A stretch of DNA of 64,000 nucleotides from Argopecten irradians (GCF_041381155.1 NC_091134.1:61182902-61246901), one strand, 5' to 3'. Numbered from the stretch's first letter, positions 1-42,800 are shown. Notes: generated by a model not told the origin, from the sequence alone. Made by a program: numbers and translations.

Positions 1-262
1 CTGGCCAGTATATAGATGTTATATGACCTTGTCAAGTATGTGACACACTACTGACCTAGTATATAGATGTTATAGACCTTGACAAGTATGACATACTGAC
101 TGCCAGTTATATGAGATGTTATGTGACCTTGTCAAGTATGACACACTGACTGGCACTATATAATGTTTATGGTGACCTTGTCAGTTATAACACACTGACT
201 GGTGGCCAGTATAGTAGATGTTATAACATGACCTTTGTCATATATAAACATACTGACTGGCA
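1..262. repeat. Tandem repeat, ~50-58 bp unit x ~5 (window-truncated). Diverged inverted relative of the 60-bp array at 7205-7555.
   Basis: Direct reading. Repeated units ctggccagtatatagatgttat..gaccttgtcaagtatg..acactgac. The reverse complement resembles the unit ..caagcttgacccataacactagtgct.. at 7205-7555. Confidence 0.75.
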
Positions 263-588
263 GATATAGAAGGGTCTGGATGAGGCTAAGAAGATCCTTC
301 TACTCATACTGCACTACCTACCCAAATCATGGACATTCAATTTCATTATCTTTGGAACAGGTAATATACTGACTAGATATGTTTCCTTGGGTTATTAAGT
401 TGGTTTTTAGGGCTGAACATTATGACAGTGAATCAATAATTATCAGAAAGTTAATCTTCATATCAATCATTTAAACAATTGCAAAGTAGTGTACGTAACT
501 TATACTATGGCTTTAGTAATTAGCATGCCCATTTGTCTCATCACAATATAAAAACCATTAGATTATTATCCGCTGCCCAACGAAGTTG

Positions 589-1245
589 GTGTAAAAATGT
601 GTCTTTTAAAGCCAAATATCGCCTAATACTGGCCAACGAAACGACTAAATACCCAATACTACCCAATACTACATGTAAATCACTAATTAAACATTTTTTA
701 TGACATAATCTATTTAATTATGTTAAATTAAAAAAAAATTGTCTTATAAAATGAGTTTTGTGTAAAAATGTGAGTTTTAAGGCCTAATATCGGCCAGAAA
801 TTACCCAATACTAGCTAACGAAACGACGAAATACCCAAAACTACCCAATACTATATGTAAATAACTTACTAACCATTCTTTTATGACATATTTTGTTTAT
901 CTATGTGAAATTAATATAAAGTTTGTCTTATAAAATCAGTTTTGTGTAAAAATGTGTCTTTTAAAGCCAAATATCGCTCAATACTGGCCAACGAAACGAC
1001 TAAATACCCAATACTACCCAATACTACATGTAAATCACTTATTTACCACGCTTTTGTGACATAATCTTTTTATTTATGTTAAGTTAAAATAGAGTTTGTC
1101 TTATATGACGACTTTTGTGTAAAAATGTGGGTTTTGAGGCCAAATATCGCCTATAAACACCCATATACCGCCAAACACATCTAAATGCCCAATACTACAC
1201 AATACTACATAAAAAGCAACTAATTTAGCATTTTATGCAACATTT
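589..1245 (+). repeat. Satellite array, ~178-bp unit x ~3.7 (unit contains gtgtaaaaatgtgtcttttaaagccaaatatcgcc...acccaatactacccaatactac). A partial copy lies at about 2790-2960.
   Basis: Units start near 589, 759, 942 and 1116 with >85% identity by eye. Confidence 0.85.
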
Positions 1246-2510
1246 CTAATTAATTTTGCTTTATGATAAATAAGTTTTACTTATAATGTACAATATACAA
1301 ATAATGTATCATTCATTTAATCCAAATTTCTAGTTTACATTATTCAAGGATTTAGAAGTGAGAGTCTTACTTATAAATCCTTGACATTATTATTTGAGTT
1401 ATATATGGCATAAAAAGTAATTTGTAAATGTAAAATAGATGATTTGCTTTGATATCCTTTACCCATAAATACCTGATATCACGCAACACAATGAGTCTAG
1501 ATACTACACAATACTACTTACACATTGTTTTGTTAAACTCTCCTAAGTATAATGTACATTATGTAACAATGTTATTTGTCAATAAAATGCGCGTGCTTGT
1601 CATCTACTGGGCTAGATATTGTTGTGGGAGTGGAAAAGGAATGACTTTCCTTGAGAGACAGCAGTCCACAATGTGACGGTTTATTACATTTTTGCTGTGA
1701 AATGCAAGGTTTTATTGTGAAAGTATACGGTATTTTCCAGTCGGGTAAAAATATCAAGTTTTGCATTTATTTGCAATACTTTTTTCATCTTTTATATCTA
1801 ATTTGGCACCAATAGGCTTCCGTATATTTATATCCTAAAAGTTATCAATTTATATTGTAAAAACGTCATTTTGTACGTTACAGGAATACACATGGTAAAA
1901 ATATGATTGGCTAGAAGTAGAAGATGGGATATGCATATTGCTCTATATACATTTTAATTTCCTGTCTTTAAGTCAACGTAAAACTATGAAAAATATTAAT
2001 AACCACTCTCAATTTCCATTTGCCGTTCCATTATCTATTTTGAGCAATACGGCAAATATTCTATTGCGAAACACAGGGATCATAAAATTAGTTATAGTTT
2101 ATATCAATATGGACCCGTTTTATTGGTATAGATCGAAAATCGGTAAAGTTTCTTTTTTTCATAGTATTGAGCATGTAAGAGGTCAGAGAAATCACTATAT
2201 ATTTGGAAATAAACACATAATCACGTGATCACTAGTTACCCAAAGTACAATTCCATATTTCAGCCAATGACACAAATGAGGAAGTAAGCATGGTACTTGT
2301 TTAACTAGGTTTTTTACTGCAGAAAAATGCACGTGTTTTGCACTTTTTTAGTGAAATTCTCTCGCGGATCGTGGTTTCATTTCCAAGGTTAGAAACAGAT
2401 TGAATTTCACAAATATAAATTTGTATCTATCTTGTTACAAGCGTTTGTTATATAAAGGCATCACGAATTTTAATACGGTTTTAATGGCCATGTACAATAT
2501 TGGTTCAACT

Positions 2511-2532
2511 GGGGGGGGGGGGGGGGGGGGGG
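2511..2532. repeat. Homopolymer (G)22
   Basis: 22 consecutive G read directly. Confidence 0.9.
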
Positions 2533-3595
2533 AATCCTCCCGGAATGAATTTGAATTTCATACATGTACAGTATAAATAAAGATTAAGATGAATTGATAG
2601 TATCATATCCTTATTTATTGAATACAAGGTCAGTATAGAGGCTAATTTAGCAAGTCTGACCATTATGTATGGATATACATGTTGCGATATATTCAGGTAC
2701 ATTTAGGAACCATTGGAGATATTTCATTAAGTTCTCAGTATGGGCTGTGCATCGAAATGAAGTTTGAAATGCTCAATGCTATCCAATACTGTAAACAACT
2801 TATTAACCACTCTTTTATGACATAATCTATCTAATTATGTTAAAATCAAGTATCTTTTACCTTCAATAATGAACTTGTTTTTACAAATGTGTGTTTTAAA
2901 GCCAAATTTCGCGCGGAAATAACCAATACACAATGAATTAATGCCCAATACTTCATAAAAACAACTAACATGATTAACAATCCTTTTGCCGTTTTTTTTC
3001 TTTTGTGTTTTGAATGATGTTTTGGTGTAAATTTATTTCAAAATTTGTAAGTCCTATACTGACTGAACCAAAATATAAATACCTAATAACTGTTTCAATT
3101 TCATACTCGGAAACAGGCTTTGAAGACTTTCTGACAGACGCAAAATAAGAAAACTTGCGTCTATAAATCGAGAGTAATTTAGCACCATACTACCTCCATG
3201 TCACTTCTTCCTCTAAAAGTTCTTTGATACATTCTTCTCTCCATGTGGGAAATGACTTGGATGAAGCGACTAGATCAACACCTTCATTAGCAACTTTTCA
3301 AATATGTACATCACGTAATTCTGATAAAAAATATCCAGCCAATTACGATTTTGGTGACAGATTCTTCAGATTTCTTTATTACTCTCTGACACACTTACGT
3401 GTGTAACAAGAGGTCAAATCAGTATAATACATTTTGACATGACGGAACACAGTCAACATAGCATTAGTATGATACAGAATATAATGGACTTATTGATCTA
3501 ATTATTATAAATTAATTTCTCTAATTTCTCAATAAACCTGCTAAGTTGCGAAAGAATACGTACGTTACACAGTGAGATTAGACCTTTCATTTTTG

Positions 3596-4400
3596 TTAGA
3601 TTAGGGTTCGTAAAATAATATTTTGGTATGTGTATTTGCCTAATTTGATGAACTGATATGTGAGTACAATTAAATAAGTAGTGAAATTCGTCACCAATAC
3701 CGTTGGAACAAAGGGGACAAATTCTTTCATTGCGGGTATATTAGCCCATCGTCCCGTTTCTATGGGCAAATGTAAATTAGAAGTACGTAATTTAACAATA
3801 TTTTTTCTATCTTTTTCATTCAGTTTCAATAGATAATTCTCCATTTGAAAATCGTTTTTAAAAACTGTATACATTTTACCTTTTGATGACAAATTCATAT
3901 CATTAAACCACCTTTGAATAAATTGATCCTTAAGTATTTGTTTAATGGTAAATTTTAAATATATTTTGTTCAATGTACAAGATTCCTGTATATTCCATAC
4001 AAAATTTAAGCCTGTCTCATAAAAAATATTTCGCACAAAATCGATCCATTTAAAACTTATGTTTCCATTTACATGCAATTGGTACATTAGTTTATATATT
4101 TTGCTTGACAATTTATCAGTGGAAATTAAATTATACCAAAACATGACCATTCTACATTTCACTTCAATACTCAACGGATATCTACTCAATTCACCATAGA
4201 CTATAAAGTTTGGTGTACTACGTCTCAAACCTAAGATACGTTTACAGAATTGCAAGTGATTTTTTTCAATAAGAAAATACAAATATTGTACATACAAAGT
4301 GAAGGCATCGATGTAGCCAGTTTTTCGATTTATTTCGAGTAAACATAGCTCACCAACAGTCCAAATTGTATCGTAGTCATATGTGTGAGAATGCCTATCA
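3596..4400 (-). mobile_element. Non-LTR retrotransposon (LINE, CR1/L2-like) ORF2 C-terminal fragment
   Basis: The 233-aa ORF contains ..ILGLRRSTPNFIVYGELSRYPL.. and ..KLRTSNLHLPIETGRW... These are motifs typical of the region downstream of RT in CR1/L2-type LINE pol proteins. There is no upstream RT or EN, so it is a fragment. Confidence 0.6.
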
Positions 4401-5914
4401 TAATTTTTTTATTTCACCGAAAAACTTTAATTACTAATGCATATTTACTATGATTTTTAAACGAAACTTACTATAAATCCAATATGCGTGGGTTGATAAG
4501 TTGGTTGAAATGCTTGTTACCGCGAGAGTCATTACACATTATTAATATACTTTTGGCATTTCATTATAGTTACATGTTACATTTACTCCAGTGAGTGTAA
4601 TAAAAGATTTCTTTTTCATATTAACGGCGGACAAAAGTAATTTGACTAAATATTAACTATCTAAATATCTGGTATAATGCGATTACTAGTCCGCTAAACC
4701 TGCCTATATTATTAGGCTTTTTTATTTATTTTTTTTTTGCCTAATATATAGTCTATATATTAGGCAAAAAAAATTAAAAAGCCGACGTCAATTTCTCATT
4801 TTTTCTTCATAATTCCACAGGCGAAAATAAAAATGTGTCTATCTTCAGTATTGAACATATTCAAGTCATATCATTTCGGATAAAAGTATCATTTTACACA
4901 TTTCAGATACATTGTGCAATTTTAGAAATAGATTACACAGTGTATGAAGATATCTTATAAAGTATATAAAATATCTTATATATATGCAGTGAAATTAAGG
5001 ATCGACATTGCTCTTTGAATAAATGTCATGTTGGCTTGCCATAAGATTGATTTGTTTAATTTCTTAGCTTCAGAGTCTTTTATCACTGAATATATTTCCT
5101 TTCTATAACAAGCGACTATACAGTGTCCTCGCAAGCAACTATACATCGCCAGTTTCAAAACAATGCAAGTGACTATACAATTTTAACTAATCATCCTACA
5201 ACTTCAAAATTCGATTAAGTAAAAGATATGGTGTCCATTGATATATATTGATATGTGTTTTATATTGTTAGATTCACCTTAGATGGTGCTTGAAAGAATG
5301 GAAGTCATACAGAATACCTTAAAATTGTGCAAAATATTAGGCGGGCGTCTTAATTCTTCGATGATGAACAGCAGATCAACTCTCGAAATGTGTCTGAAAC
5401 GTTAATGCTGATTAACCCTCAACATCTCATTAGTCACTGGTAGTTCAAATTGCTATCCATGACGCCATTTATAACTGAAAATTACAAAAAAAAAATGTAT
5501 AGAATAAATGAAATTGGCAAAAATTATCCACTATCCATTGTCTTAGCAAGTGATCGAGTACCGCTATACAGACTCGCAACTACGAAATTTAAAAAATACT
5601 ATTTATACACTTCCGTTCATACACTCTGGATTCGTTCATGTCCAATGTTAGAGATCAAGTAACCAATGAGAATTCAGCCTTGTCAATCACTTGATGATTA
5701 TAATGACTGACACCTGTAATTAGTGTCCGCTAGCCAATGATATGTTTGAAGAGGAGGGGCCTAGAGTCGAGCACCTGTCAATTATACCTGACTGATCAAA
5801 GGGGACGTCCACGGACAAATGCCGTAATTTTTCTACACCGTGTATTTTGTAAAAAGATTAATTATAAAGTTTGAATGGATTTCTACGAAATTTTAGTAGA
5901 AAAAAATCGCGTTA

Positions 5915-5996
5915 TTGCACAAAACTTTGGCGTTGTTACGCGAAACTTTGGCGTTATTACGCAAAACTATCGCGTTATTACGCAAAATGTACATTA
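5915..5996. repeat. 20-21 bp tandem repeat x4 (cgcgttattacgcaaaacttt)
   Basis: Direct reading. Confidence 0.8.
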
Positions 5997-6654
5997 TACG
6001 TATGATGGTTAGCACACATTTTTGTAGCTATCAGAAAATAATCAACAACTTTCAAACCAAACGGTTATTACATGATCAATGGTGCAAAAACGTGTGCATT
6101 TGATGAGGCAAATATTTATTTTATGGTGTTATACCACCCTAATTAATTTACATTGTGTAAATTATGAATGAGGTCGTATACATAATCGGACATCATTTTT
6201 TATATTCTACCTGGGTAATATAACACCATATGCATATTAAACGAATTCGAATCGGTCCCTAATTTTTACATTAGATGTGTAGTTTCTCTGAAAAATATCA
6301 ATTGGATTATTTGAGGTGCTTGAAGGATGGCCATAGGACACTACCCTGGTGAACTCAACGTTTGGACATTGGAGTTAAAAATTACAATATCTATGCGAAT
6401 ATGACGGCACAACACTAATATTAGATGATATTTTTGAAAAAGGTAAACAAAAACTTAAATGTCATATTCCTAACAACGGTAACAACCATTTTTTCCAATG
6501 ATTTTCAAATTTCTTTTGAAGAGTATCGCTTTTATTAAAAACTATATATTTTTGGATACGGTAGTGATATTTTATAACATTTACATGTGCATTTACATTA
6601 AACGTTTTATGGAGACACTTTGTTTTATAAATATAGTGCTTAATAATTCTCACT

Positions 6655-7135
6655 TGCAACCACTGTAGTTTCGAACACACATTTTTACACAAAACTCATT
6701 TTATAAGACAAACTTTATTTTAATTTAACATAGACAAATAGAAAATGTCATAAAAAAATGGTTAGTAAGTTATTTACATATAGTATTGGGTAGTATTGGG
6801 TATTTCGTCGTTTCGTTAGCTAGTATTGGGTAATTTCCGGCCGATATTTGGCCTCAGAACCCACATTTTTACACAAAACTCATTTCATAAGACAAATTTT
6901 ATTTAAATTTAATATAAATAAATAGATTATGTCATAAAAGGATGTTTAATTAGTGATTTACATATAGTATTGGGTAGTATTGGGTATTTAGTCGTTTCGT
7001 TGGCCAGTATTGGGCGATATTTGGCTTTAACACACTCATTTTTACACAAAACTCATTTTTAAAGGCAAAATATAGTTTAATTGAATGGTATTGATTATAT
7101 AAAGTCCCAAAACAATGATTTATTAGCTATTTACA
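6655..7135 (-). repeat. Same ~178-bp satellite family as 589-1245, in inverted orientation, x ~2.7
   Basis: The reverse complement of the units matches gtgtaaaaatgtg...acccaatactacccaatac. Confidence 0.85.
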
Positions 7136-7200
7136 GGTAGTATTGGGTAGTATTGGGTAGTATTGGGTGGTATTGGGTAGTATTGGGTAGTATTGGGTAT
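7136..7200. repeat. Microsatellite (GTAGTATTGG)n x6. This is an expansion of the 10-bp motif found inside the 178-bp satellite unit.
   Basis: gtagtattgggtagtattgg... read directly. The motif is the reverse complement of cccaatactac. Confidence 0.9.
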
Positions 7201-7204
7201 TTAG

Positions 7205-7555
7205 CCGCGCCGCAGGTAGACACATCAAGTGTTGACAAGCTTGATCCATAACACTAGTGCTTATGCTCTGTACAGGTAGGCACATCAAGTGTTGATATGC
7301 TTGACCCATAACGCTAGTGCTTAAGCTCTGTACAGGTAGACACATCAAGTGTTGGCAAGCTTGACCCATAGCACTAGTGCTAAAGCTCTATACAGGTAAG
7401 TACATATTGTTGATATGCTTGACCCATAACGCTAGTGCTTAAGATCTATACAGGTAAGTACATCAAGTGTTGGCAAGCTTGACCCATAACACTAGTGCTA
7501 AAGCTCTATACAGGTAAGTACATATTGTTGTTGCTTGACCCATAACGCTAATGAT
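7205..7555 (-). repeat. Tandem repeat, ~60-bp unit x6 (ctgtacaggtagacacatcaagtgttggcaagcttgacccataacactagtgctaaagct)
   Basis: Six consecutive units read directly. Confidence 0.85.
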
Positions 7556-8175
7556 ATCTTGTTAGGAAATTAATTCAAAATAAGTTGATCTATTTGATTG
7601 GTCTCAATAGTGCTGTCATAAAAAGGCAATATGTACAGTCAAAATTGTGGTTAATCTGAATGTACTGCAATCTATGAAATTTCTTGCAGGGATGCAGTTA
7701 AGTTGTTGGTTGTACTGTATGTACCTGAAAATTTGTGATTGATATATCATTTTATGCTGCAACTGTCCCACAAACTGACCGATAACTACGGCCGGATAAA
7801 CTTCTGCTATATCTGTCAATATGAAATGCTTTAGGGGATCCGTCAATGCAATCACTTGAATATGTTACACATTTGACAAAACTTTTTCTTATTTGACCGA
7901 TAACTTTAACCTTCAGGTGAATGGAACGTCATTCAGTCCCACTAAAAGGTGACATCACATTCACCGGAATTACGTCATTCTTATGATATTGCAAATCTTG
8001 TATAGCGCTTATATATTTCCCACGTTAGTAAAAGGAGTAGGTACACTCTCATTCGGTTATTAAATAAGTGAATGAATCTCTTCCTCCGCATCAAAGAAGT
8101 GTTTCACTTCGAGCAAAACCAAGTAAATAACTGGCAATTTGCTTTCTTTTTGAATGTCATAATGGTTGCAGGATA

Positions 8176-8328
8176 AACAGAATACATGGTTAGTATCTTA
8201 TAATACAAGTTTTATTTTGGTGCTCAACACGGAAAGCCAAGATGACTTGGCACAGCCTTGTCATCTCGGCTTTCTTAAGTCTCACACCAAAATAAATCTT
8301 GTGTTGTAAGATACTAACCATGTATTCT
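8176..8328. repeat. ~150-bp foldback. It has 30-bp terminal inverted repeats (acagaatacatggttagtatcttataatacaag / cttgtgttgtaagatactaaccatgtattct) and a nested inner palindrome (gaaagccaagatgac / gtcatctcggctttc).
   Basis: The reverse complement of the right arm equals the left arm apart from 2-3 mismatches. The inner palindrome was verified by eye. Confidence 0.7.
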
Positions 8329-8559
8329 CTATATATGTAAAGGGTATATTTACATGTCCATTGCATAATATCGAAAAATTAATTAATCAGCTTCATGTTT
8401 CAGTCACAGAAGTGCAAATATTGGTTGTTATATTTCTGAAATTGATGTGTTACGTGCTTAGGCTACCTTTACATTTTCTTCCTGGTCTGCTAGCATGCAT
8501 TACTTAAAATTGGAAAGTAGCTAAATAAATTTTATATTTTATTTCTATTTCAATTGCAG

Positions 8560-8747
8560 TCTGTAGATGCTAACATGGGAAATACAGATCTGTACCGACC
8601 TCTGCACTCATTTTACCTTTTAAAGCCGGAGAATGCATTACGGAATATTTTCCTTGTGTCTGATGGACATATCAACCACAAAGATGTTACCATGGATACA
8701 GTACACAAAAACTCCCAACATACACGGGTGTTCACCTTTGGTGTCAG
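8560..8747 (+). CDS. Gene A exon (vWA domain middle: SVDANMGNTDLYRPLHSFYLLKPENALRNIFLVSDGHINHKDVTMDTVHKNSQHTRVFTFGV)
   Basis: Acceptor caattgcag| and donor gtgtcag|gtctga. It holds the vWA MIDAS-region motifs GxT and the hydrophobic-DG strand. It is phase 0 in and phase 2 out. Confidence 0.7.
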
Positions 8748-9275
8748 GTCTGAAACAAATCATTCTTTAAAAAATTCAACACTTATCATTGGAAAATTTG
8801 GGTAGTAGACTTAGAATATTGATTCAATAGTATTTAGTAATTAGACTGATGTGGGAGACCAATAGTAACCTTAGTGTCCATCTATATGTCTAAAACTAAA
8901 ACAAAAATTGTCCCATTTCAGTAAAAATTGGTATACAGGAGTATTTGCAGGGGTTACTAGTCATTTACTACTAACTACAGCTAAGGGGTCAACTATATGG
9001 GGTCAGGGCCATTACTGTTGGATTTCAGTTTTCTAATAAGTTTTACTACGATAACCAAATATGATATTGACTTCCCAATCACTAGTCAGTTTTAGTGAGG
9101 ATGATGTTTTAGTGATTTCACGTGCATGTGATTTAATTTGATTCGTAAATTGATTGTACATATTTCACATTTTTTCATCTGCAGGAAAAGGCCATGTAGT
9201 GTACTTACCTGGCAATTTTAAAGTTATCTTGGTATTGAATGTCTCCCCTCCTTAAAATCACCACCTTTTTGGATT

Positions 9276-10935
9276 TTTAGCCCACCATCATCAGATGGTG
9301 GGCTATTTAAATCACCTTTTGTCTGTGGTCCGTCGTCCGTCCGTCCGTCCTTCTTTCCGTCCGTCCGTCCGTTAACAATTCTTGTTACCGCTATTTCTCA
9401 GAAAGTACTGAAGTGATCTTTCTCAAATTTCATATGTAGGTTCCCCTATGGCCCTAGTTGTGCATATTGCATTTTGGGACTGATCAGTTAACAAGATGGC
9501 TGCAAGGTGGCCATCTTGGATTTTGGTAGTTAAAGTTTGTTACCGCTATTTCTCAAAAAGTGCAGAAGGGATCTTTCTCAAATTTTATATGTAGGTTCCC
9601 CTAGGACCCTAGTTGTGCATTTTGCATTTTGGGACGGATCGGTCAACAAGATGGCCGACAGGTGGCCATCTTGGATTTTGGTAGTTAAAGTTTGTTACCG
9701 CTATTTCTCAAAAAGTGCAGAAGGGATCTTTCTCAAATTTTATATGTAGGTTCCCCTATGGCCCTAGTTGTGCATATTGCATTTTGGGACCGTTCGGTCA
9801 AAAATATGGCCGACAGGCGGCCATCTTGGATTTTGATAGTTGAAGTTTATTACCGCTATTTCTCAGAAAGTACTGAAGGGATCTTTCTCAAATTTCATAT
9901 GTAGGTTCCCCTGGGACCCTAGTTGTGCATATTGCATTTTGGGACCGATCGGTCAACAAGATGGCCAACAGGCGGCCATCTTTGATTTTGGTAGTTAAAG
10001 TTTGTTACCGCTATTTCTCAAAAAGTGCTGAAGGGATCTTTCTCAAATTTTATATGTAGGTTCCCCTAGGACCCTAGTTGTGCATATTGCATTTTGGGAC
10101 CGATCGGTCAACAAGATGGCCAACAGGCGGCCATCTTTGATTTTGGTAGTTAAAGTTTGTTACCGCTATTTCTCAAAAAGTGCTGAAGGGATCTTTCTCA
10201 AATTTTATATGTAGGTTCCCCTAGGACCCTAGTTGTGCATATTGCATTTTGGGACCGATCGGTCAACAAGATGGCTGACATGCGACCATCTTGGATTTTT
10301 ATAGTTAAAGTTTGTTACCGCTATTTCTCAGAAAGTACTGAAGGGATCTTTCTCAAATTTCATATGTATGTTCCCCTAGGGCCCTAGTTGTGCATATTGC
10401 ATTTTGGGACCGATCGGTCAACAAGATGGCTGCCATGCAGCTATCATGGATTTTTATAGTTAAAGTTTTTTATTGCTTTTTCTCAGAAAGTATTGAAGGG
10501 ATCTGTCTCAAATTTCATATGTAGGTACCCCTAGGTCCCTAGTTGTGCATATTGTGTTTTGGGACCGATCGGTCAACAAGATGGCCACCTGGCAGCCATC
10601 TTGGATTTTGATAGTTAAAGTTTGTTATTGCTATTTCTAAAAAAGTACTGAAGGGATCTCTCTCAAATTGTATATGCAGGTTCCCCTAGGGCCCTAGTTG
10701 TGCATATTGCATTTTGTAACTATTAGGTCAACAAGATGGCTGCACAGCCGCCATCTTGGATTTCATCGTTGAAGTTTGTTACCACTATTTCTTAGAAAGT
10801 ACTATAGCGATCTATCTCAAATTTTATATGTAGTGTGTTTGAAAAAGTTTGAAAAGCAGGGAAAAGATCCCTCTTTCCATTGTCAGACATAGATAATTCT
10901 TTGGTGGGCGCCAAGATCCCTCTGGGATCTCTTGT
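9276..10935 (-). mobile_element. HINE/DINE-1-like non-autonomous element carrying satellite B. On the + strand it reads, in order:
- TTTAG + hairpin (agcccaccatcatcagatggtgggct)
- (CCGT)n microsatellite 9319-9372
- ~155-bp satellite B x ~9.5 (9383-10835)
- palindromic tail (agatccctctgggatct)
   Basis: Direct reading. The order of hairpin, tetranucleotide microsatellite and tandem array matches the 3-prime to 5-prime layout reported for Helentron-associated HINEs. Confidence 0.6.
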
Positions 10936-17274: not shown

Positions 17275-18512
17275 GGCTAAGATGTGATATTGTTTATGTA
17301 GACAGAAGATCAAGTAAATGAGGTAGAGGTGTGATATTGTTTATGTAGACAGAAGATCAAGTAAATGAGGTAGAGGTGTGATATTATTTATGTAGACAGA
17401 AGATCAGGTAAATGAGGAAGAGATGTGATATTGTTTATGTAGACAGAAGATCAGGTAAATGAGGCTGAGATGTGATATTGTTTATGTAGACAGAAGGTCA
17501 GGTAAATGAGGTAGAGATGTGATATTGTTTATGTAGACAGAAGATCAGGTAAATGGGGTAGAGATGTGATATTGTTTATGTAGACAGAAGATCAAGTAAA
17601 TGAGGTAGAGATGTGATATTGTTTATGTAGACAGAAGATCAGGTAAATGAGGTAGAGATGTGATATTGTTTATGTAGACAGAAGATCAGGTAAATGAGGT
17701 AGAGATGTGATATTATTTATGTAGACAGAAGATCAGGTTAATGAGGTAGAGATGTGATATTGTTTATGTAGACAGAAGTTTAGTAAAAATGGGTAGTGAT
17801 ATGATATTGTTTATGTAGACAGAAGATCAGGTAAATGAGGTAGAGATGTGATATTGTTTATGTAGACAGAAGATCAGGTTAATGAGGTAGAGATGTGATA
17901 TTGTTTATGTAGACAGAAGATCAGGTAAATGAGGCTGAGATGTGATATTGTTTATGTAGACAGAAGATCAGGTAAATGAGGAAGAGATGTGATATTGTTT
18001 ATGTAGACAGAAGATCAGGTAAATGAGGTAGAGATGTGATATTGTTTATGTAGACAGAAGACCAGGTTAATGAGGTAGAGATGTGATATTGTTTATGTAG
18101 ACAGAAGACCAGGTTAATGAGGTAGAGATGTGATATTGTTTATGTAGACAGAAGACCAGGTTAATGAGGTAGAGATGTGATATTGTTTATGTAGACATAA
18201 GATCAGGTAAATGAGTTAGAGATGTGATATTGTTTATGTAGACAGAAGATCAGGTAAATGAGGTAGATATGTGATATTGTTTATGTAGACAGAAGATCAG
18301 GTAAATGAGGTAGAGATGTGATATTGTTTATGTAGACAGAAGATCAAGTAAATGAGGTAGAGATGTGATATTGTTTATGTAGACAGAAGATCAGGTAAAT
18401 GAGGTAGAGATGTGATATTGTTTATGTAGACAGAAGATCAAGTAAATGAGGTAGAGATGTGATATTGTTTATGTAGACAGAAGATCAGGAAATGAGGTAG
18501 AGATGTGATATT
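17275..18512. repeat. 37-bp minisatellite (unit ~tgtgatattgtttatgtagacagaagatcaggtaaatgaggtagaga) x ~33, left block
   Basis: Direct reading. It sits in a gene A intron. Confidence 0.9.
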
Positions 18513-18514
18513 GT

Positions 18515-20370
18515 TTTTAGGTCATCTGACCCGAAGGGTCAGGATGACCTATAGTCATCATGTTTCATCCGTCATCGTCCGCCGTCCGCCGTCCGCCGTG
18601 CGTTAACTTTTCACATTTTGAACTTCTTCTCAAGTTCTACCAGTGCAATTTGGCTGAAACTTGCATGAAATGATCCTGACATGGTCCCGACAAAGTGTTG
18701 TTATTTTTCGGGTCGATCCGAAATCAAAGATGGCCGCCACAGCCGCCATCTTGAAAACACATTTTGAACTTCTTCTCAAGTTCTACCGGTGCGATTTGAC
18801 TGAAACTTGCATGAAATGATCCTGACATGGTCCCGACAAAGTGTTGTTAATTTTCAGGTCGATCCGAAATCCAAGATGGCCGCCACAGCCACCATCTTGA
18901 AAACACATTTTGAACTTCTTCTAAAGTTCTACTGGTGCGCTGAAACTTGCATGAAATGATCCTGACATGGTCCTGACAAAGTGTTGTTATTTTTCGGGTC
19001 GATCCGAAATCCAAGATGGCCGCCACAGTCGCCATCTTGAAAACACATTTTGAACTTCTTCTCAAGTTCTACTGGTGCGATTTGGCTGAAAATTGCATGA
19101 AATGATCCTGACATGGTCCTGACAAAGTGTTGTTATTTTTCGGGTCGATCCGAAATCCAAGATGGCAGCCACAGCCGCCATCTTGAAAACACATTTTGAA
19201 CTTCTTCTCAAGTTCTACTGGTGCGATTTGGCTGAAACTTGCATGAAATGATCCTGACATGGTCCCGACAAAGTGTTGTTATTTTTCGGGTCGATCCCAA
19301 ATCCAAGATGGCCGCCACAGCCGCCATCTTGAAAACACATTTTGAACTTCTCAAGTTCTACCGGTGCGATTTGGCTGAAACTTGCATGAAATGATCCTGA
19401 CATGGTCCCGACAAAGTGTTGTTATTTTTCGGGTCGATCCGAAATCCAAGATGGCCGCCACAGCCGCCATCTTTAAAACACATTTTGAACTTCTCAAGTT
19501 CTACCGGTGCGATTTGGCTGAAACTTGCATGAAATGATCCTGACATGGTCCCGACAAAGTGTTGTTATTTTTCGGGTCGATCCGAAATCCAAGATGGCCG
19601 CCACAGCCGCCATCTTGAAAACACATTTTGAACTTCTTCTCAAGTTCTACCGGTGCGATTTGACTGAAACTTGCATGAAATGATCCTGACATGGTCCAAA
19701 CAAAGTGTTGTTATTTTTCGGGTCGATCCGAAATCCAAGATGGCCGCCACAGCCGCCATCTTGAAAACACATTTTGAACTTCTTCTCAAGTTCTACTGGT
19801 GCGATTTGACTGAAACTTGCATGAAATGATCCTGGCATGGTCCCGACAAAGTGTTGTTATTTTTCGGGTCGATCCGAAATCCAAGATGGCCACCACAGCC
19901 GCCATCTTGAAAACACATTTTGAACTTCTTCTCAAGTTCTACCGGTGCGGTTTGACTGAAACTTGCATGAAATGATCCTGACATGGTCCTGACAAAGTGT
20001 TGTTATTTTTTAGGTTGATACGAAACCCAAGATGGCAGCCACAGCCGCCATCTTGAAAACATATTTCGAACTTCTTCTCAAGTTCTACCGGTGCGATTTG
20101 GCTGAAACTTGCATGAAATGATCCTGACATGGGCCCGACAAAGTATTGTTACATCTCTGGTTGATCACAAATCGAAGCTGGCTACCATGACACTCTATCT
20201 AATTAATTTCCTATATGTTAAGGCCCTTGGGCCTCTTGTTTGAAATAAAATTTGTTGAAAGAAATTGAAAATGATCCTGACATGGTCCTGACAAAGTGAC
20301 ACCATATATAATTAATTTTACTATTGCCAAGGTAGTCAGATGACCGTTAAGGCCCTTTGGGCCTCTTGTT
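18515..20370 (-). mobile_element. HINE-like element carrying satellite C, inserted inside the 37-bp minisatellite. On the + strand it reads, in order:
- TTTTAG + hairpin (ggtcatctgacccgaagggtcaggatgacc)
- (CCGT/CCGC)n
- ~146-bp satellite C x ~10.5 (18603-20150)
- duplicated tail ..gtcagatgaccgttaaggccctttgggcctcttgtt
   Basis: The minisatellite unit is split (..gatattgttt | element | gtagacataagatcagg..) and resumes in phase. The tail contains gtcagatgacc, which is complementary to the head stem ggtcatctgac (an asymmetric TIR). Confidence 0.65.
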
Positions 20371-22195
20371 GTAGACATAAGATCAGGTAAATGAGGAAGA
20401 GATGTGATATTATGAAGACAGAAGATCAGGTAAATGAGGAAGAGATGTGATATTGTTTATGTAGACAGAAGATCAGGTAAATGAGGTAGAGATGTGATAT
20501 TGTGTATGTAGACAGAAGATAAGGTAAATGAGGTAGAGATGTGATATTGTTTTTGTAGACAGAAGATAAGGTAAATGAGGAAGAGATGTGATATTGTTTT
20601 TGTAGACAGAAGATCAGGTAAATGGGGTAGAGATGTGATATTGTTTATGTAGACAGAAGATCAGGTAAATGAGGTAGAGGTGTGATATTGTTTATGTAGA
20701 CAGAAGATCAGGTAAATGAGGTAGAGATGTGATATTGTTTATGTAGACAGAAGATCAAGTAAATGAGGTAGAGGTGTGATATTGTTTATGTAGACAGAAG
20801 ATCAAGTAAATGAGGTAGAGATGTGATATTGTTTATGTAGACAGAAGATCAGGTAAATGAGGAAGAGATGTGATATTGTTTATGTAGACAGAAGATCAAG
20901 TAAATGAGGTAGAGGTGTGATATTGTTTATGTAGACAGAAGATCAAGTAAATGAGGTAGAGGTGTGATATTGTTTATGTAGACAGAAGATCAGGTTAATG
21001 AGGTAGAGATGTGATATTGTTTATGTAGACAGAAGACCAGGTTAATGAGGTAGAGATGTGATATTGTTTATGTAGATAGAAGATCAGGTAAATGAGGTAG
21101 AGATGTGATATTGTTTATGTAGACAGAAGATCAGGTTAATGAGGTAGAGATGTGATATTGTTTATGTAGACAGAAGGTCAGGTAAATGAGGTAGAGATGT
21201 GATATTGTTTATGTAGACAGAAGGTCAGGTAAATGAGGTAGAGATGTGATATTGTTTATGTAGACAGAAGGTCAGGTAAATGAGGTAGAGATGTGATATT
21301 GTTTATGTAGACAGAAGATCAGGTAAATGAGGTAGAGATGTGATATTGTTTATGTAGACAGAAGATCAGGTAAATGAGGTAGAGATGTGATATTGTTTAT
21401 GTAGACAGAAGACCAGGTAAATGAGGTAGAGATGTGATATTGTTTATGTAGACAGAAGATCAGGTTAATGAGGTAGAGATGTGATATTGTTTATGTAGAC
21501 AGAAGATCAGGTAAATGAGGTAGAGATGTGATATTGTTTATGTAGACAGAAGATCAAGTAAATGAGGTTGAGATGTGATATTGTTTATGTAGACAGAAGA
21601 TCAGGTAAATGAGGTAGAGATGTGATATTGTTTATGTAGACAGAAGATCAGGTAAATGAGGTAGAGATGTGATATTGTTTATGTAGACAGAAGATCAGGT
21701 AAATGAGGTTGAGATGTGATATTGTTTATGTAGACAGAAGATCAGGTAAATGAGGAAGAGATGTGATATTGTTTATGTAGACAGAAGATCAGGTTAATGA
21801 GGTAGAGATGTATATGTTTATGTAGACAGAAGATCATAATGAGGTGTGTGATATGTTATGTAGACAGAAGATCAGGTAAATGAGGTAGAGATGTGATATT
21901 GTTTATGTAGACAGAAGATCAGGTAAATGAGGTAGAGATGTGATATTGTTTATGTAGACAGAAGATCAGGTAAATGAGGTAGAGATGTGATATTGTTTAT
22001 GTAGACAGAAGATCAGGTAAATGAGGTAGAGATGTGATATTGTTTATGTAGATAGAAGATCAGGTAAATGAGGTAGAGATGTGATATTGTTTATATAGAC
22101 AGAAGGTAAGGTAAATGAGGTAGAGATGTGATATTGTTTATGTAGATAGAAGATCAGGTAAATGAGGTTGAGATGTGATATTGTGTAGACAAAAG
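20371..22195. repeat. 37-bp minisatellite, right block x ~49
   Basis: Same unit as the block at 17275-18512. Confidence 0.9.
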
Positions 22196-22610
22196 ATAAG
22201 GTAAATAGAGGTCAATCATTTAAATCGATGCATGTCATAATATTCTTCATGGATTGTAACCAAATTTGGCCAGAAACATCCTCTAAGAGTTTGTATAGTT
22301 ATTGGCTCTGACCCCCTGGGGCAGGAGGGGCGAGGTTTAATAGGAGAAATAGAGGTAATTCCTTTAAATCGCTACTAGTCATAGAGTTCTGCATTAAATT
22401 TGGCTAGAAACATCTTTTGAGGAAGGGGAACAGACTGTTTATAAATTTTGGCTGTAAAGCAGAATAAGTGGAGCCTAATGGGGAAATTAGTAAATATCTA
22501 AATTTACTTCAGAAAAGAAACAATGAACCTGTAATCAGAACCTTACTTGGCATTACAAACCAGGTGAGCGATACAGGCCCTCTTGGCCTCTTGTTTAGAT
22601 GATTTCAATA
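22196..22610 (-). mobile_element. Headless fragment of a satellite-D element: ~1.7 monomers plus tail (..accaggtgagcgatacaggccctcttggcctcttgttt)
   Basis: It matches the 31054-33057 element at the monomer and tail. Confidence 0.55.
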
Positions 22611-29389: not shown

Positions 29390-30957
29390 ATATATTGATG
29401 ATGTTATGCTTTTGTCTTAAGTATGGAGCCATCCTTTATGAAGTCACAGTGGCATATGTGAGTAAAGCCAGTCTGCCATATGGCAGTCATTGCTTTATGT
29501 CAATCTGGCAAAATTTCCAACTATGCAGTCAATGATGTCCCTAAGCATCATTATAGAATCTCGCCATGTTTTATTTTGAAATCCTTGTTGACCTTGTTTT
29601 GATAATAAATAATGTAATTAAAGACTTCTTTGCTTGCAAATAATTGGAGCATTCAGAATTTAAAAAAGTAGTTGTTGTAAAAATTCCAGTTACCTCTGTT
29701 TGTTACATTTTTGTATATCACCACATTGAATGTTTACTTTTTATCATCAGTAGAGTGTCAGAAGGGGAGTCAATACCTTCATCTTTACTGGTGACGGAAA
29801 AAATGGTGAGTTTACACAGATAAGCATTCCAGATTCATATTAATCCACCGGCATGCTGGAATGACTAGATCACTAAATAAAGTATTTCAGTGAAAGTTAC
29901 TCTGTGTTCTATTTTGTCTTTGTATGTAACAGTTATCTATCCTTGAGTTATCTATTTGGCCCACTTCATTTAAAATGCCAGGTGGAGTCAGTCATGTGGC
30001 TGGCTTATAAAAGGCTTGTGTCAATAAAATTCTGCCAGTAAGCTAATTAAATCCAAATTTGTATTTAGAAAATGTGATGTTTTCCCAGATAATTACGGTA
30101 ATATTTATTCCTGACTGGCATGGTAAGTGTGTTTTTAGCTCACCTGGCCTGAAGGGCCGGTGAGCTTATATATATTGATGATGTTTGCTTTTGTCTTAAG
30201 TATGGAGCCATCCTTTATGAAGTCACAGTGGCATATGTGAGTAAAGCCAGTCTGCCATATGGCAGTCATTGCTTTATGTCAATCTGGCAAAATTTCCAAC
30301 TATGCAGTCAATGATGTCCCTAAGCATCATTATAGAATCTCGCCATGTTTTATTTTGAAATCCTTGTTGACCTTGTTTTGATAATAAATAATGTAATTAA
30401 AGACTTCTTTGCTTGCAAATAATTGGAGCATTCAGAATTTAAAAAAGTAGTTGTTGTAAAAATTCCAGTTACCTCTGTTTGTTACATTTTTGTATATCAC
30501 CACATTGAATGTTTACTTTTTATCATCAGTAGAGTGTCAGAAGGGGAGTCAATACCTTCATCTTTACTGGTGACGGAAAAAAATGGTGAGTTTACACAGA
30601 TAAGCATTCCAGATTCCAGATTCATATTAATCCACCGGCATGCTGGAATGACTAGATCACTAAATAAAGTATTTCAGTGAAAGTTACTCTGTGTTCTATT
30701 TTGTCTTTGTATGTAACAGTTATCTATCCTTGAGTTATCTATTTGGCCCACTTCATTTAAAATGCCAGGTGGAGTCAGTCATGTGGCTGGCTTATAAAAG
30801 GCTTGTGTCAATAAAATTCTGCCAGTAAGCTAATTAAATCCAAATTTGTATTTAGAAAATGTGATGTTTTCCCAGATAATTACGGTAATATTTATTCCTG
30901 ACTGGCATGGTAAGTGTGTTTTTAGCTCACCTGGCCTGAAGGGCCGGTGAGCTTATG
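29390..30957. repeat. Tandem duplication of a ~780-bp unit (29390-30169 and 30170-30957). Each copy ends with the hairpin tttttagctcacctggcctgaagggccggtgagcttat.
   Basis: The two copies are >98% identical by eye. Indels include ttatgc/tttgc and A6/A7. Confidence 0.85.
29750..29804 (+). CDS. Gene A candidate exon (-S RVSEGESIPSSLLVTEKM), in copy 1 of a 780-bp tandem duplication. The paralogous copy at 30530-30585 has an extra A that breaks the frame.
   Basis: Acceptor tttttatcatcag| and donor aaaatg|gtgagt. Only copy 1 keeps the phase chain intact. Confidence 0.35.
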
Positions 30958-33057
30958 TCATGGCGCGGCGTCCGTCGTCGTCCGTGCCGTCCGTCCGTCC
31001 GTCCGTCCGTCCGTCCGTCGTCCGTCCGTCCGTCCGTCGTCCGTCCGTCCGTCAACATTTCCTTTAAATCGCTACTAGTCATAGAGTTCTGCATGGATTG
31101 TAACCAAATTTGGCCACAAACATCCTTGGGGGAGGGGGAACAGAACTTGTATAAATTTTGGCTCTGTCCCCCCCGGGGCAGGAGGGGCGGGGCCCAATAG
31201 GGGAAATAGAGGTAAATCCTATAAATCGCTACTTGTCCTAGAGTTCTGCATGGATTGTAATCAAATTTGACCACAAACATCCTTGGGGGAGGGGGAACAG
31301 AACTTGTATAAATTTTGGCTCTGGTCCCTCAGGGGCAGGAGGGGCGGGGCCCAATAGGGGAAATAGAGGTAAATCCTATAAATCGCTACTTGTCCTAGAG
31401 TTCTGCATGGATTGTAACCAAATTTGACCACAAACATCCTTGGGGGAGCAGAAACAGAACTTGTATATAAATTTTGGCTCTGGTCCCCCAGGGGCAGGAG
31501 GGGCGGGGCCCAATAGGGGAAATAAAGGTAAATCCTTTATATCGCTACTTGTAATAGAGTTCTACATGAATTGTAACCAAATTCGGCCACAAACATCCTT
31601 GGGGGAAGGGGAACAGAACTTGTGTAAATTTTGACTCTGGTCCCCCGGGGGCAGGAGGGGCGGGGCCCAATAGGGGAAATAGAGGTAAATCCTTTAAATC
31701 GCTACTAGTCATTGAGTTCTGAATGGAATGTAACCAAATTTGGCCACAAACATCCTTGGGGGAAGGGGAACAGACCTTGTATAAATTTTGGCTCTGACCC
31801 CCGGGGGCAGGAGGGGCGGGGCCCAATAGGGGAAATAGAGGTAAATCCTTTAAATCTCTACTAGTCATAGAGCTCTACATGAATTGTAACCAAATTTGGC
31901 CACAAACATCCTTGGGGGAAGGGGAACAGAACTTGTATAAATTTTGGTTCTGATCCCCCAGGGGCAGGAGGGGCGGGGCCCAATAGGGGAAATAGAGGTA
32001 AATCCTTTATATCGCTACTTGTCATAGAGTTCTGAATGGAATGTAACCAAATTTGGCCATAAACATCCTTATGGGAAGGGGAAGAGAACTTGTATAAATT
32101 TTGGCTCTAGTCCCCCGGGGGCAGGAGGGGCGGGGCCCAATAGGGGAAATAGAGGTAAATCCTTTAAATCGCTACTAGTCATTGAGTTCTGAATGGAATG
32201 TAACCAAAATTTGGCCACAAACATCCTTTGGGGAAGGGGAACAGAACTTGTATAGATTTTGGCTCTGACCCCCCCGGGGGCAGGAGGGGCGGGGCCCAAT
32301 AGGGGAAATAGAGGTAAATCCTTTATATCGCTACTTGTCATAGAGTTCTGAATGGAATGTAACCAAATTTGGCCATAAACATCCTTTGGGGAAGGGGAAG
32401 AGAACTTGTATAAATTTTGGCTCTAGTCCCCCGGGGGCAGGAGGGGCGGGGCCCAATAGGGGTAATAGAGGTAAATCCTTTAAATCGCTACTAGTCATTG
32501 AGTTCTGAATGGAATGTAACCAAAATTTGCCACAAGCATCCTTTGGGGAAGGGGAACAGAACTTGTATAGATTTTGGCTCTGACCCCCCCGGGGGCAGGA
32601 GGGGCGGGGCCCAATAGGGGAAATAGAGGTAAATCCTTTAAATTGCTACTAGTCATAGAGTTCTGCATGGATTGAAACCAAATTTGGCCACAAACATCCT
32701 TGGGGGAAGGGGAACAGAACTTGTATAAATTTTGACTCTGGCCCCCCGAGGACAGGACGGGTGGGGCCCAATAGGGGAAATAGAGGTAAATCCTATAAAT
32801 CACTTCTTGTCCTAGAGTTTTTCTTGGATTGTGACCAAATTTAGCCATAAACATCCTTGGGGGAAGGGGAACAGAACTTGTATAAATTTTGGCTCTGACC
32901 CCCTGGGGGCGGGAGGGGTGGGGCCCAATAGGGGATTTAGAGGTTAATATTAAAATTCCTTCAGAAAAGAAACAATGAACCTGTATTCAGAACATTACTT
33001 GGCATTACAAACCAGGTGAGCGATACAGGCCCTCTGGGCCTCTTGTTTACAAACAAC
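30919..33057 (-). mobile_element. HINE-like element carrying satellite D. On the + strand it reads, in order:
- hairpin agctcacctggcctgaagggccggtgagct
- (CGTC/CCGT)n microsatellite 30958-31053
- ~157-bp satellite D x12 (31054-32935)
- tail ..ttcagaaaagaaacaatgaacctgta..accaggtgagcgatacaggccctctgggcctcttgtttac
   Basis: Direct reading. The satellite-D monomer contains the GC-box-like aggaggggcggggccc. Confidence 0.6.
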
Positions 33058-39754: not shown

Positions 39755-39865
39755 GTAAATAATTAAGCTTCAACACATCTTCTGGTTCTAAAGATGTGAT
39801 ACATTTTTCTCTGACTGTATTTATAACACCCTCTGTTGTAGGTTATCATTAGTATAAAGTCATAG

Positions 39866-42800
39866 GTAGGTATTGTTATACTGTCCTTGGTACATAGTCA
39901 TTGCTAGGTATTGTTATACTGTCCTTGGTACATAGTCATTGTTAGGTATTGTTATACTTGTCCATTGGTAATAGTCATTGTTAGGTATTTTTATACTGTC
40001 CTTGGTATATAGTCATTGTTAGGATTGTTATACTGTCCTTGGTACATAGTCATTGTTAGATATTGTTATACTATCCTTGGTATATAGTCATTGTTAGGTA
40101 TTGTTATACTGTCCTTGGTATATAGTCATTGTTAGGTATTGTTATACTGTCCTTGGTACATAGTCATTGTTAGGTATTGTTATACTGTCCTTGGTATATA
40201 GTCATTGTTAGGTATTGTTATACTATCCTTGGTATATAGTCATTGTTAGGTATTGTTATACTGTCCTTGGTATATAGTCATTGTTAGGTATTGTTATACT
40301 GTCCTTGGTATATAGTCATTGTTAGGTATTGTTATACTGTCCTTGGTATATAGTCATTGTTAGGTATTGTTATACTGTCCTTGGTATATAGTCATTGTTA
40401 GGTATTGTTATACTTTCCTTGGTATATAGTCATTGTTAGGTATTGTTATACTATCCTTGGTATATAGTCATTGTTAGGTATTGTTATACTGTCCTTGGTA
40501 TATAGTCATTGTTAGGTATTGTTATACTGTCCTTGGTATATAGTCATTGTTAGGTATTGTTATACTGTCCTTGGTATATAGTCATTGTTAGGTATTGTTA
40601 TACTGTCCTTGGTATATAGTCATTGTTAGGTATTGTTATACTGTCCTTGGTATATAGTCATTGTTAGGTATTGTTATACTGTCCTTGGTATATAGTCATT
40701 GTTAGGTATTGTTATACTGTCCTTGGTATATAGTCATTGTTAGGTATTGTTATACTATCCTTGGTATATAGTCATTGTTAGGTATTGTTATACTGTCCTT
40801 GGTATATAGTCATTGTTAGGTATTGTTATACTGTCCTTGGTATATAGTCATTGTTAGGTATTGTTTATCTGTCCTTGGACTATATAGTCATTGTTAGGTA
40901 TTGTTATACTGTCCTTGGTATAGTCATTGTTCATTGTTATACTTCCTGGTATAGTCATTGTTTATTGTTATACTGTCCTTGGTATATAGTCATAGTTAGG
41001 TATTGTTATACTGTCCTTGGTACATAGTCATTGTTAGGTATTGTATTGTACTGTCCTTGGTACATAGTCATTGTTAGTATTGGTATTGTTATACTGTCCT
41101 TGGTACATAGTCATTGTTAGGTATTGTTATACTGTCCTTGGTATATAGTCATTGTTAGGTATTGTTATACTGTCCTTGGTACATAGTCATTGTTAGGTAT
41201 TGTTATACTGTCCTTGGTACATTAGTCATTGTTAGGTATTGTTATACTGTCCTTGGTATATAGTCATTGTTAGGTATTGTTATTACTGTCCTTGGTACAT
41301 AGTCATTGTTAGGTATTGTTATACTGTCCTTGGTATATAGTCATTGTTAGGTATTGTTATACTGTCCTTGGTATATAGTCATTGTTAGGTATTGTTATAC
41401 TGTCCTTGGTATATAGTCATTGTTAGGTATTGTTATACTGTCCTTGGTACATAGTCATTGTTAGGTATTGTTATACTATCCTTGGTATATAGTCATTGTT
41501 AGGTATTGTTATACTGTCCTTGGTATATAGTCATTGTTAGGTATTGTTATACTGTCCTTGGTATATAGTCATTGTTAGGTATTGTTATACATCCTTGGTA
41601 TAGTCATTGTTAGGTATTGTCCTTTAGGTATTGTTATACTGTCCTTGGTATATAGTCATTGTTAGGTATTGTTATACTGTCCTTGGTATATAGTCATTGT
41701 TAGGTATTGTTATACTGTCCTTGGTATATAGTCATTGTTAGGTATTGTTATACTGTCCTTGGTATATAGTCATTGTTAGGTATTGTTATACTGTCCTTGG
41801 TATATAGTCATTGTTAGGTATTGTTATACTGTCCTTGGTATATAGTCATTGTTAGGTATTGTTATACTGTCCTTGGTATATAGTCATTGTTAGGTATTGT
41901 TATACTGTCCTTGGTACATTATCATTGTTAGGTATTGTTATACTGTCCTTGGTACATAGTCATTGTTAGGTATTGTTATACTGTCCTTGGTACATAGTCA
42001 TTGTTAGGTATTGTTATACTGTCCTTGGTATATAGTCATTGCTAGGTATTGTTATACTGTCCTTGGTACATAGTCATTGTTAGGTATTGTTATACTGTCC
42101 TTGGTATATAGTCATTGTTAGGTATTGTTATACTGTCCTTGGTATATAGTCATTGTTAGGTATTGTTATACTGTCCTTGGTATATAGTCATTGTTAGGTA
42201 TTGTTATACTGTCCTTGGTATATAGTCATTGTTAGGTATTGTTATACTATCCTTGGTATATAGTCATTGTTAGGTATTGTTATACTGTCCTTGGTACATA
42301 GTCATTGTTAGGTATTGTTATACTATCCTTGGTATATAGTCATTGCTAGGTATTGTTATACTATCCTTGGTATATAGTCATTGTTAGGTATTGTTATACT
42401 GTCCTTGGTATATAGTCATTGTTAGGTATTGTTATACTGTCCTTGGTATATAGTCATTGTTAGGTATTGTTATACTGTCCTTGGTATATAGTCATTGTTA
42501 GGTATTGTTTATACTATCCTTGGTATATAGTCATTGTTAGGTATTGTTATACTGTCCTTGGTATATAGTCATTGTTAGGTATTGTTATACTGTCCTTGGT
42601 ACATAGTCATTGTTAGGTATTGTTATACTGTCCTTGGTACATATAGCCATTGTTAGGTATTGTTATACTGTCCTTGGTATATAGTCATTGTTAGGTATTG
42701 TTATACTGTCCTTGGTATATAGTCATTGTTAGGTATTGTTATACTATCCTTGGTATATAGTCATTGTTAGGTATTGTTATACTGTCCTTGGTATATAGTC

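Follow-up and report, generated by a model that had tools for sequence, protein, structure and literature searches.

Inverted 173/184-bp satellite-like arrays in a repeat-rich interval between two PARP4-like exons of Argopecten irradians

A stretch of 64,000 nucleotides of Argopecten irradians (GCF_041381155.1 NC_091134.1:61182902-61246901), hereafter the window, was analyzed, and its region 1-7555 was evaluated via direct reading, Tandem Repeats Finder (TRF), blastn against the window and an inverted-repeat search. The exons of P0017, a PARP4-like protein of A. irradians (XP_069141939.1), mapped from 8575 to 53150 (tblastn), which placed the whole window inside the PARP4-like gene on the plus strand. 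Four tandem arrays were recognized in the region by sequence reading and TRF. The two inner arrays consisted of the same 173/184-bp satellite-like repeat in opposite orientations. The outer arrays had shorter units, and a preliminary description of the locus had presented all four as a single mirror-symmetric complex. The inner arrays, their monomers and a related fragment were located as follows.

579-1290, plus strand: left inner array, 171-184-bp satellite-like repeat (TRF, blastn, alignment)
589-759, plus strand: monomer m1, A type
760-943, plus strand: monomer m2, B type with an 11-bp insert
944-1116, plus strand: monomer m3, A type
1117-1290, plus strand: monomer m4, divergent and B-like
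2766-2958, plus strand as the left array, inside the spacer: degenerate third copy of the 173-bp repeat, approximately 1.1-1.3 units (blastn 71-74% to both arrays, E 1e-19 to 4e-21; inverted-repeat search)
6674-7135, minus strand: right inner array, the same 173/184-bp repeat inverted, before a 10-bp expansion (TRF, blastn, inverted-repeat search)
6691-6874, minus strand: monomer Ma, B type
6875-7047, minus strand: monomer Mb, A type
7048-7207, minus strand: partial monomer Mc (7048-7135 being the tail outside the expansion)

The monomers were delimited by anchoring on GTGTAAAAATGTG. Type A measured 171-173 bp (m1, m3 and Mb), and type B measured 184 bp with the 11-bp insert (m2, Ma and the diverged m4). 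Read as its reverse complement, the right array ran from the partial Mc, which contained the expanded motif, through Mb and Ma to 15 bp of a further monomer beyond Ma, with which the array starts at 6674. Its extent according to TRF was 6674-7189, the expansion lying at its end. The A and B types alternated head to tail in both arms, which is the structure of a satellite-like tandem family with a higher-order repeat. The left array started approximately 9 bp before phase 0 and ended near phase 174, and the right array (reverse complement) started at phase ~53 and ended at phase 15.

The inner arrays, which had been proposed in the preliminary description to be inverted, were confirmed by the TRF periods of 173/184 bp, and their inverted relation was confirmed by blastn, in which 586-960 (plus) matched 7050-6674 (minus) with 92.3% identity over 377 bp (E 3e-155). 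The inverted-repeat search recovered these arms at 91%. The identities of the in-register pairs across the arms were 94% for m1-Mb and 92% for m2-Ma; within the left array the values were 89% (m1-m3) and 79% (m2-m4), the A and B types agreed at 83-88%, and out-of-register alignments of the arrays reached 77-80% (blastn). The closest relatives of the monomers were always found across the arms and never within one array. A value of 85% between the tail of Mc and m4 was discarded as a gap-rich artefact of pairwise alignment that was invisible in the MAFFT alignment. Because both arrays carried the same A-B dimer with a divergence of 6-8%, descent from one dimer that was copied locally and inverted is suggested. 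Moreover, all three copies of the 173-bp family lay inside a stretch of 7 kb, the remaining 56 kb of the window being free of it (blastn), and this distribution points to a local origin. The degenerate copy at 2766-2958 had been missed in the preliminary description.

The similarity between the arms was confined to the monomers. The flanks of the arms showed no similarity on the inner or the outer side, where the scores fell within the shuffle range, and no monomer remnant was present in the left outer flank of the left inner array. No target-site duplication was detected when 500-590 and 7195-7290 were compared as direct repeats, the score being at the shuffle mean. The arrays were 5.4 kb apart and the best-matching arms ~5.7 kb apart, and the interior between the arms was not palindromic according to blastn and the inverted-repeat search. 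Extrusion of a cruciform is unlikely over a distance of ~5.7 kb. Ectopic recombination between the inverted arms is conceivable.

The 10-bp expansion and the two outer arrays were arranged around the inner arrays as follows.

4-268, plus strand: left outer array, unit ~49 bp (47-55), ~4.4-5 copies (TRF 4-224, 80% matches; extended to 268 by self-blastn)
7136-7199, minus strand: (GGTAGTATTG)6.4 expansion (TRF, 96% matches)
about 7213-7556, plus strand: right outer array, 60-bp unit with a 118-bp higher-order dimer, ~5.2 units (TRF 85% for 60 bp and 91% for 118 bp; self-blastn)

The GGTAGTATTG expansion derived from the CAATACTACCCAATACTAC motif found in every monomer, and the expanded unit, with its 10-bp period, was the monomer's own CAATACTACC motif. 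A bridge of 13 bp (7200-7212), which consisted of GGTATTTAGCCG (monomer phase ~53-64) and then CGCCG, connected the expansion to the 60-bp array. The earlier statement that a motif expansion on the right ran into the 60-bp array was thus borne out by the 6.4 copies and this bridge. The left end had also been suspected to extend beyond the window, and the 49-bp array indeed crossed the left edge of the window; at 269/270 it abutted a PARP4-like exon (exon A).

The outer arrays had been described as mirror images of each other, and this claim was not upheld. Their periods were ~49 bp and 60/118 bp, they had no blastn match to each other on either strand, and they did not form an inverted pair in the inverted-repeat search. 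In full-length Smith-Waterman comparisons, the same-strand score was reached by 287 of 300 shuffles, and the reverse-complement score by 149 of 300. A weak signal that depended on the scoring parameters (z 2.2-4.2) was obtained for the consensus units in the reverse-complement orientation only, and it was driven by the shared CTTGTCAA and GTTATG. With null results for the full arrays and only this weak consensus signal, a relationship of the outer arrays as diverged mirror images is unproven. Neither the 49-bp nor the 60/118-bp family had a copy elsewhere in the 64-kb window (self-blastn).

The PARP4-like gene contributed two exons that framed the interval, and one of them was found inside the supposed complex.

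270-360, plus strand: relic exon A, VWA domain, KGLDEAKKILLLILHYLPKSWTFNFIIFGT (tblastn against P0016 aa 877-907: 77% identity, E 7e-11)
8560-8746, plus strand: exon B, SVDANMGNTDLYRPL...FTFGV, starting in phase 0 (tblastn, HMMER)

In a full HMMER search with exon B as the query, P0017 was 100% identical and P0016, the PARP4-like protein of Ylistrum balloti, was 94% identical; the open reading frame (ORF) at 8554-8805 resembled part of the VWA domain. Exon A had a conserved donor (ACAG/GTAATA) and ended in phase 1, according to the DNA alignment with Ylistrum. Its 5' half (ortholog aa 845-876, with LDLSNSM) was absent, and the homology stopped exactly at 270, where the 49-bp array ended. Exon A was thus placed between the two arrays of the left side. 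Hence, the single mirror-symmetric complex fails, because the outer arrays are unrelated, exon A stands between the left arrays, the interior is non-palindromic, and the flanks are unshared without a target-site duplication. The long-range inverted repeat that had been proposed held for the inner 173/184-bp arrays, and it did not hold for 1-7555 as one complex.

The interval between exons A and B was 8.2 kb in the scallop window versus ~0.9 kb in Y. balloti. In the Ylistrum locus (L008, 22278-23562), a middle exon of 74 nt was present between exons A and B, and none of the three repeat families was found; the introns of this locus were too diverged for alignment. The 74-nt middle exon was undetected on either strand of the scallop window, in which a profile of 33 homologs also found nothing. 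An inverted position in the spacer, which would have pointed to an inversion through the arms, was considered for this exon, and the best peptide match (3045-3128, minus strand; score 32-34, ~E 2) was unconvincing. In a scan of 791 pseudo-exons constrained by splice sites and phase, 3045-3128 ranked 12th and 4782-4864 (plus strand) ranked 2nd, and neither was convincing. The phases of the two exons (1 at the end of exon A, 0 at the start of exon B) preclude an in-frame junction. Furthermore, all eight RefSeq isoforms began at the Met of exon B (8575), and they therefore lack the BRCT, PARP and VIT domains.

There is a slim chance that the small VWA exon and the first half of exon A were removed or scrambled through recombination or template switching between the arms, or through the rearrangement that founded them. 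If this were true, the front of the PARP4-like gene would have been cut off, and the locus would express only an N-terminally truncated protein without BRCT, the PARP catalytic domain, VIT and half of VWA; for a bivalve, this would document an intronic satellite inverted repeat as the cause of a structural gene truncation.

Other repeats were observed in and near the PARP4-like introns. Just upstream of exon B, a 162-bp hairpin (8173-8334) had 50-bp arms that were 90% complementary and 62 bp apart, and it looks like a miniature inverted-repeat transposable element (MITE) or a foldback element. A 100% tandem duplication at 29407-30912 (779-787-bp spacing) carried two small PARP4-like exons twice; it is either very recent or an assembly duplication. 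A 7-kb intronic satellite at 39852-46877 (38-bp unit, ~183 copies, 114-bp higher-order unit) lay between two PARP4-like exons. In the Ylistrum intron before exon B (L008 22860-23275), there was an unrelated tandem array with a ~50-bp unit and ~8 copies, and this array of its own indicates that the turnover of intronic arrays in scallops is quick.

Between the inner arrays, the spacer contained the tail of a long interspersed nuclear element (LINE) and, close to the left array, a palindrome.

1344-1384, ~55 bp past the left array: palindrome with an 11-bp stem TCAAGGATTTA (DNA fold z-score -3.0)
3596-~4290, minus strand: C-terminal tail of a LINE ORF2, 5'-truncated and frameshifted (homology to cluster P0001)

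The match of P0001 to the LINE ORF had 48% identity (E 8e-47), and in five independent contigs a same-strand RVT_1 ORF directly preceded the cluster-mate P0002. Because the cluster gene lies directly 3' of the RVT_1 ORF, the piece in the window is identified as the tail of a LINE ORF2. The preliminary description had placed a putatively CR1/L2-like ORF2 fragment on the minus strand at 3596-4400; an ORF2 tail was indeed present, and its start was moved, since the homology begins at ~4290 and not at 4400. The copy lost its frame after RWANIP, ahead of the C..C...H...C motif. The ORF at 3596-4297 (minus strand) had no Pfam domain, no reverse-transcriptase domain was present in the window copy, and ORF1 of the homologous LINE element had no Pfam assignment. 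A search for transposon proteins among 10 ORFs of the spacer gave no credible Pfam match and no transposase-like ORF. The palindrome at 1344-1384 had no counterpart near the right array or the third copy. Further features of the spacer were a run of 20 G (2513-2532), a 43-bp near-perfect palindrome (TTTTTTTTGCCTAATATATAG..., 4731-4773) and a 21-bp repeat with 3.8 copies (5909-5987). No Rfam family and no tRNA were found in the whole window.

The inner arrays were compared with known repeat systems. Dispersed short satellite-DNA-like arrays with 140-180-bp monomers and 2-5 copies per array are known in Crassostrea gigas (PMC7492417, PMC8268682). The scallop arrays were similar to them in having 171-184-bp monomers, 3-4 per array, in AT-rich, euchromatic or intronic surroundings, with a microsatellite next to the array at one side and, close by, several fragments that lay in either orientation. 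However, they had no recognizable Helentron flanks (subterminal inverted repeat, internal repeat and right-flank palindrome), unlike the Helentron-type arrays of bivalves, and their microsatellite was a 10-bp expansion of an internal motif, whereas the flank microsatellite of bivalve arrays has units of 3-8 nt. With a microsatellite ahead of a few ~170-bp repeats, the general layout also resembled a Helentron-associated interspersed element (HINE), but the defining flank modules were missing and the junction phases differed between the 173/184-bp arrays. No microsatellite and no palindrome that could represent a HINE left flank were present upstream of the left arm; at the right arm, the expanded monomer motif and then the 60-bp array occupied this position instead of a flank module. 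The conserved HINE right flank (~60 bp, subterminal repeat and palindrome) was not common to the copies, with a palindrome only after the left array.

Long inverted arms of tandem subrepeats, unequal arm lengths and a heterogeneous middle were shared with the Drosophila foldback (FB) elements. Unlike FB, the scallop structure had no common terminus and no target-site duplication, a host exon lay inside its left end, and its outer repeats were unrelated; no second copy of a foldback-like architecture was found in the 64-kb window. Two inverted arms flanking a unique spacer are also seen in the palindromes of the human Y chromosome. In contrast to palindromes maintained by gene conversion, the arms here were ~0.4-0.7 kb long, at most 92% identical, without a sign of homogenisation, and composed of satellite monomers only.

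Arrays with a HINE-like layout were observed elsewhere in the window. In a HINE-type element at 18517-20370, an (CCGTCCGC)n microsatellite was followed by 10.6 copies of a 146-bp unit, and palindromes marked the left flank (TTAGGTCATCTGACCCGAAGGGTCAGGATGACCTA) and the right flank (AAGGCCCTTTGGGCCTC), a layout that fits the HINE structure of oysters (PMC7492417). It was nested in phase in a 47-bp satellite, which resumed on its other side (17280-22212). At 9328-10833 and 30969-32948, (GTCC)n and (CGTC)n microsatellites were each followed by a 155-157-bp array, as in a HINE. The PARP4 introns of Ylistrum (L008 17535-17980 and 23801-23961) also contained relatives of these units, with 68-70% identity for the 155-bp family and 83% for the 146-bp family. 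Hence, the 155-bp and 146-bp families are common to scallop genera, and the 173-bp family is not.

No match to the 173/184-bp family turned up in the literature searched. When JGI metagenomes were scanned with 23-mers, only two contigs were returned, both of an unrelated MITE-like element that shared GTATTGGG motifs. This element (L001 100-840 and L002 1150-1745) had the terminal inverted repeats GTTAGAACGATAC..., was rich in GTATTGGG and shared an exact 23-mer with the 173-bp monomer, which could be a chance match of low complexity or a distant relationship. Scans of viral and prokaryote collections for copies of the repeat found none, a protein search with concatenated satellite-ORF peptides gave no match, and exact-product look-ups with the window ORFs and the RefSeq proteins gave no contigs.

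Several explanations of the inverted arrays were weighed. A non-autonomous transposon with 173/184-bp cargo (a Helentron-derived HINE or a tandem-repeat MITE, as in oysters and clams) that inserted independently two or three times, in opposite orientations, is a rather unlikely source of the arrays. In bivalve HINEs, the cargo typically comprises dispersed short arrays (2-5 monomers, each of 140-180 bp), in many cases beside a microsatellite (PMC7492417); in the window, one end of the right array carries a microsatellite, there is a palindrome past the left array, a third dispersed copy exists at 2766-2958, and other HINE-like arrays occur at 9328-10833, 18517-20370 and 30969-32948. However, the two arrays share neither left- nor right-flank sequence, and their junction phases are unlike at both ends. 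The microsatellite is an expanded internal motif of the monomer rather than a flank component, and the left arm lacks it; nothing like the palindrome at 1344-1384 accompanies the other copies, and no further copy was found in the remaining 56 kb. The confinement of the similarity to the monomers, the differing junction phases, the unshared flanks and the lack of a target-site duplication make two intact insertions of a satellite transposon unlikely. Moreover, the clear HINE at 18517-20370 indicates that the hallmarks of satellite-carrying transposons are easily recognized in this DNA, and they are missing around the 173-bp arrays. The single large foldback-type transposon or palindromic amplicon over 1-7555, two of the mechanisms offered in the preliminary description, is very improbable. 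Superficially, the structure recalls Drosophila FB termini, since its inverted arms are made of tandem subrepeats and repeats of shorter period lie beyond the right arm, but the outer arrays are unrelated, a host exon is placed within the supposed left terminus, no terminal sequence or target-site duplication is in common, and the interior has no transposase-like ORF. A palindrome maintained by conversion is opposed by arms of 92% (92.3% at best) instead of >99% and by the non-palindromic spacer. The third mechanism offered, nested insertion into a composite satellite, was the nearest to the evidence, in that insertions into repeat-rich DNA are involved.

An inversion of 1291-7212 that split one once-direct array, so that the arms are old neighbours and not duplicates, is also improbable. 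Reversal of this segment would join m4 to the microsatellite and Mc in one seven-monomer array, and with a dimeric A-B higher-order structure, adjacent dimers could resemble each other. The breakpoint phases nevertheless misfit, with the end of m4 at ~174 and the start of Mc at ~53, and the same-type monomers of the left array agree at 79-89% versus 92-94% across the arms. No orientation marker supports the inversion, as the missing exon was not convincingly found on either strand. Little weight is likewise given to an assembly artefact, that is, a local mis-orientation or collapse in a repeat-rich heterozygous genome. The likely source assembly was made from 10-kb PacBio libraries with Raven, Purge Haplotigs and instaGRAAL (PMC11439060), the 6.6-kb span of the structure is near the read length, and the coding continuity of the PARP4-like gene breaks exactly at the structure. 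Against these points, the order and orientation of exons A and B are correct, no N run occurs in the region, and the junctions are unique sequence. Moreover, arms produced by a collapse or by a duplicated read would be identical, and those observed differ by 6-8%.

According to the explanation that is favoured here, the inverted arrays arose when an A-B dimer, belonging to a dispersed satellite-like repeat, was copied locally in the opposite orientation, and they stand among unrelated later insertions; we regard this as probable, if only by a little. The region is a repeat-swollen and partly degenerate stretch between two PARP4-like exons, and it would have been built piecemeal from unrelated repeats. 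From the anatomy, the identities, the unshared flanks and the host-gene context, which were observed directly, we infer the mechanism of duplication and the order of events. The inverted copying may have occurred, for example, by template switching or by a repair-associated inverted duplication. Afterwards, the arms would have evolved separately, the right arm expanding the 10-bp motif and the left arm keeping the older m3 and m4. Both outer arrays (49 bp and 60/118 bp), the LINE tail, the degenerate 173-bp copy and everything else in the 5.4-kb spacer would be separate components, independent of each other. The structure as a whole is probably functionless and probably not mobile as one piece.

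Some points weigh against the inverted local copy. It was judged from one 64-kb window of the genome and from assembled sequence. A transposon origin in which both copies were truncated at both ends is conceivable. Furthermore, if neighbouring dimers of a once-direct array had been unusually similar, an inversion with one breakpoint next to that array would have left the same arrangement.

The 173/184-bp family appears to be new, but dispersed arrays of ~170 bp in gene-rich DNA are already documented for bivalves. Beyond annotation the finding is of little importance, although the interval coincides with a break in PARP4-like coding, with one exon missing, one exon truncated and the isoforms starting downstream. 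Host exons were useful here as markers against the notion that the supposed repeat unit is one unit. Moreover, apparent large mirror-image satellite complexes in bivalves can reduce to a modest inverted pair and unrelated neighbours.

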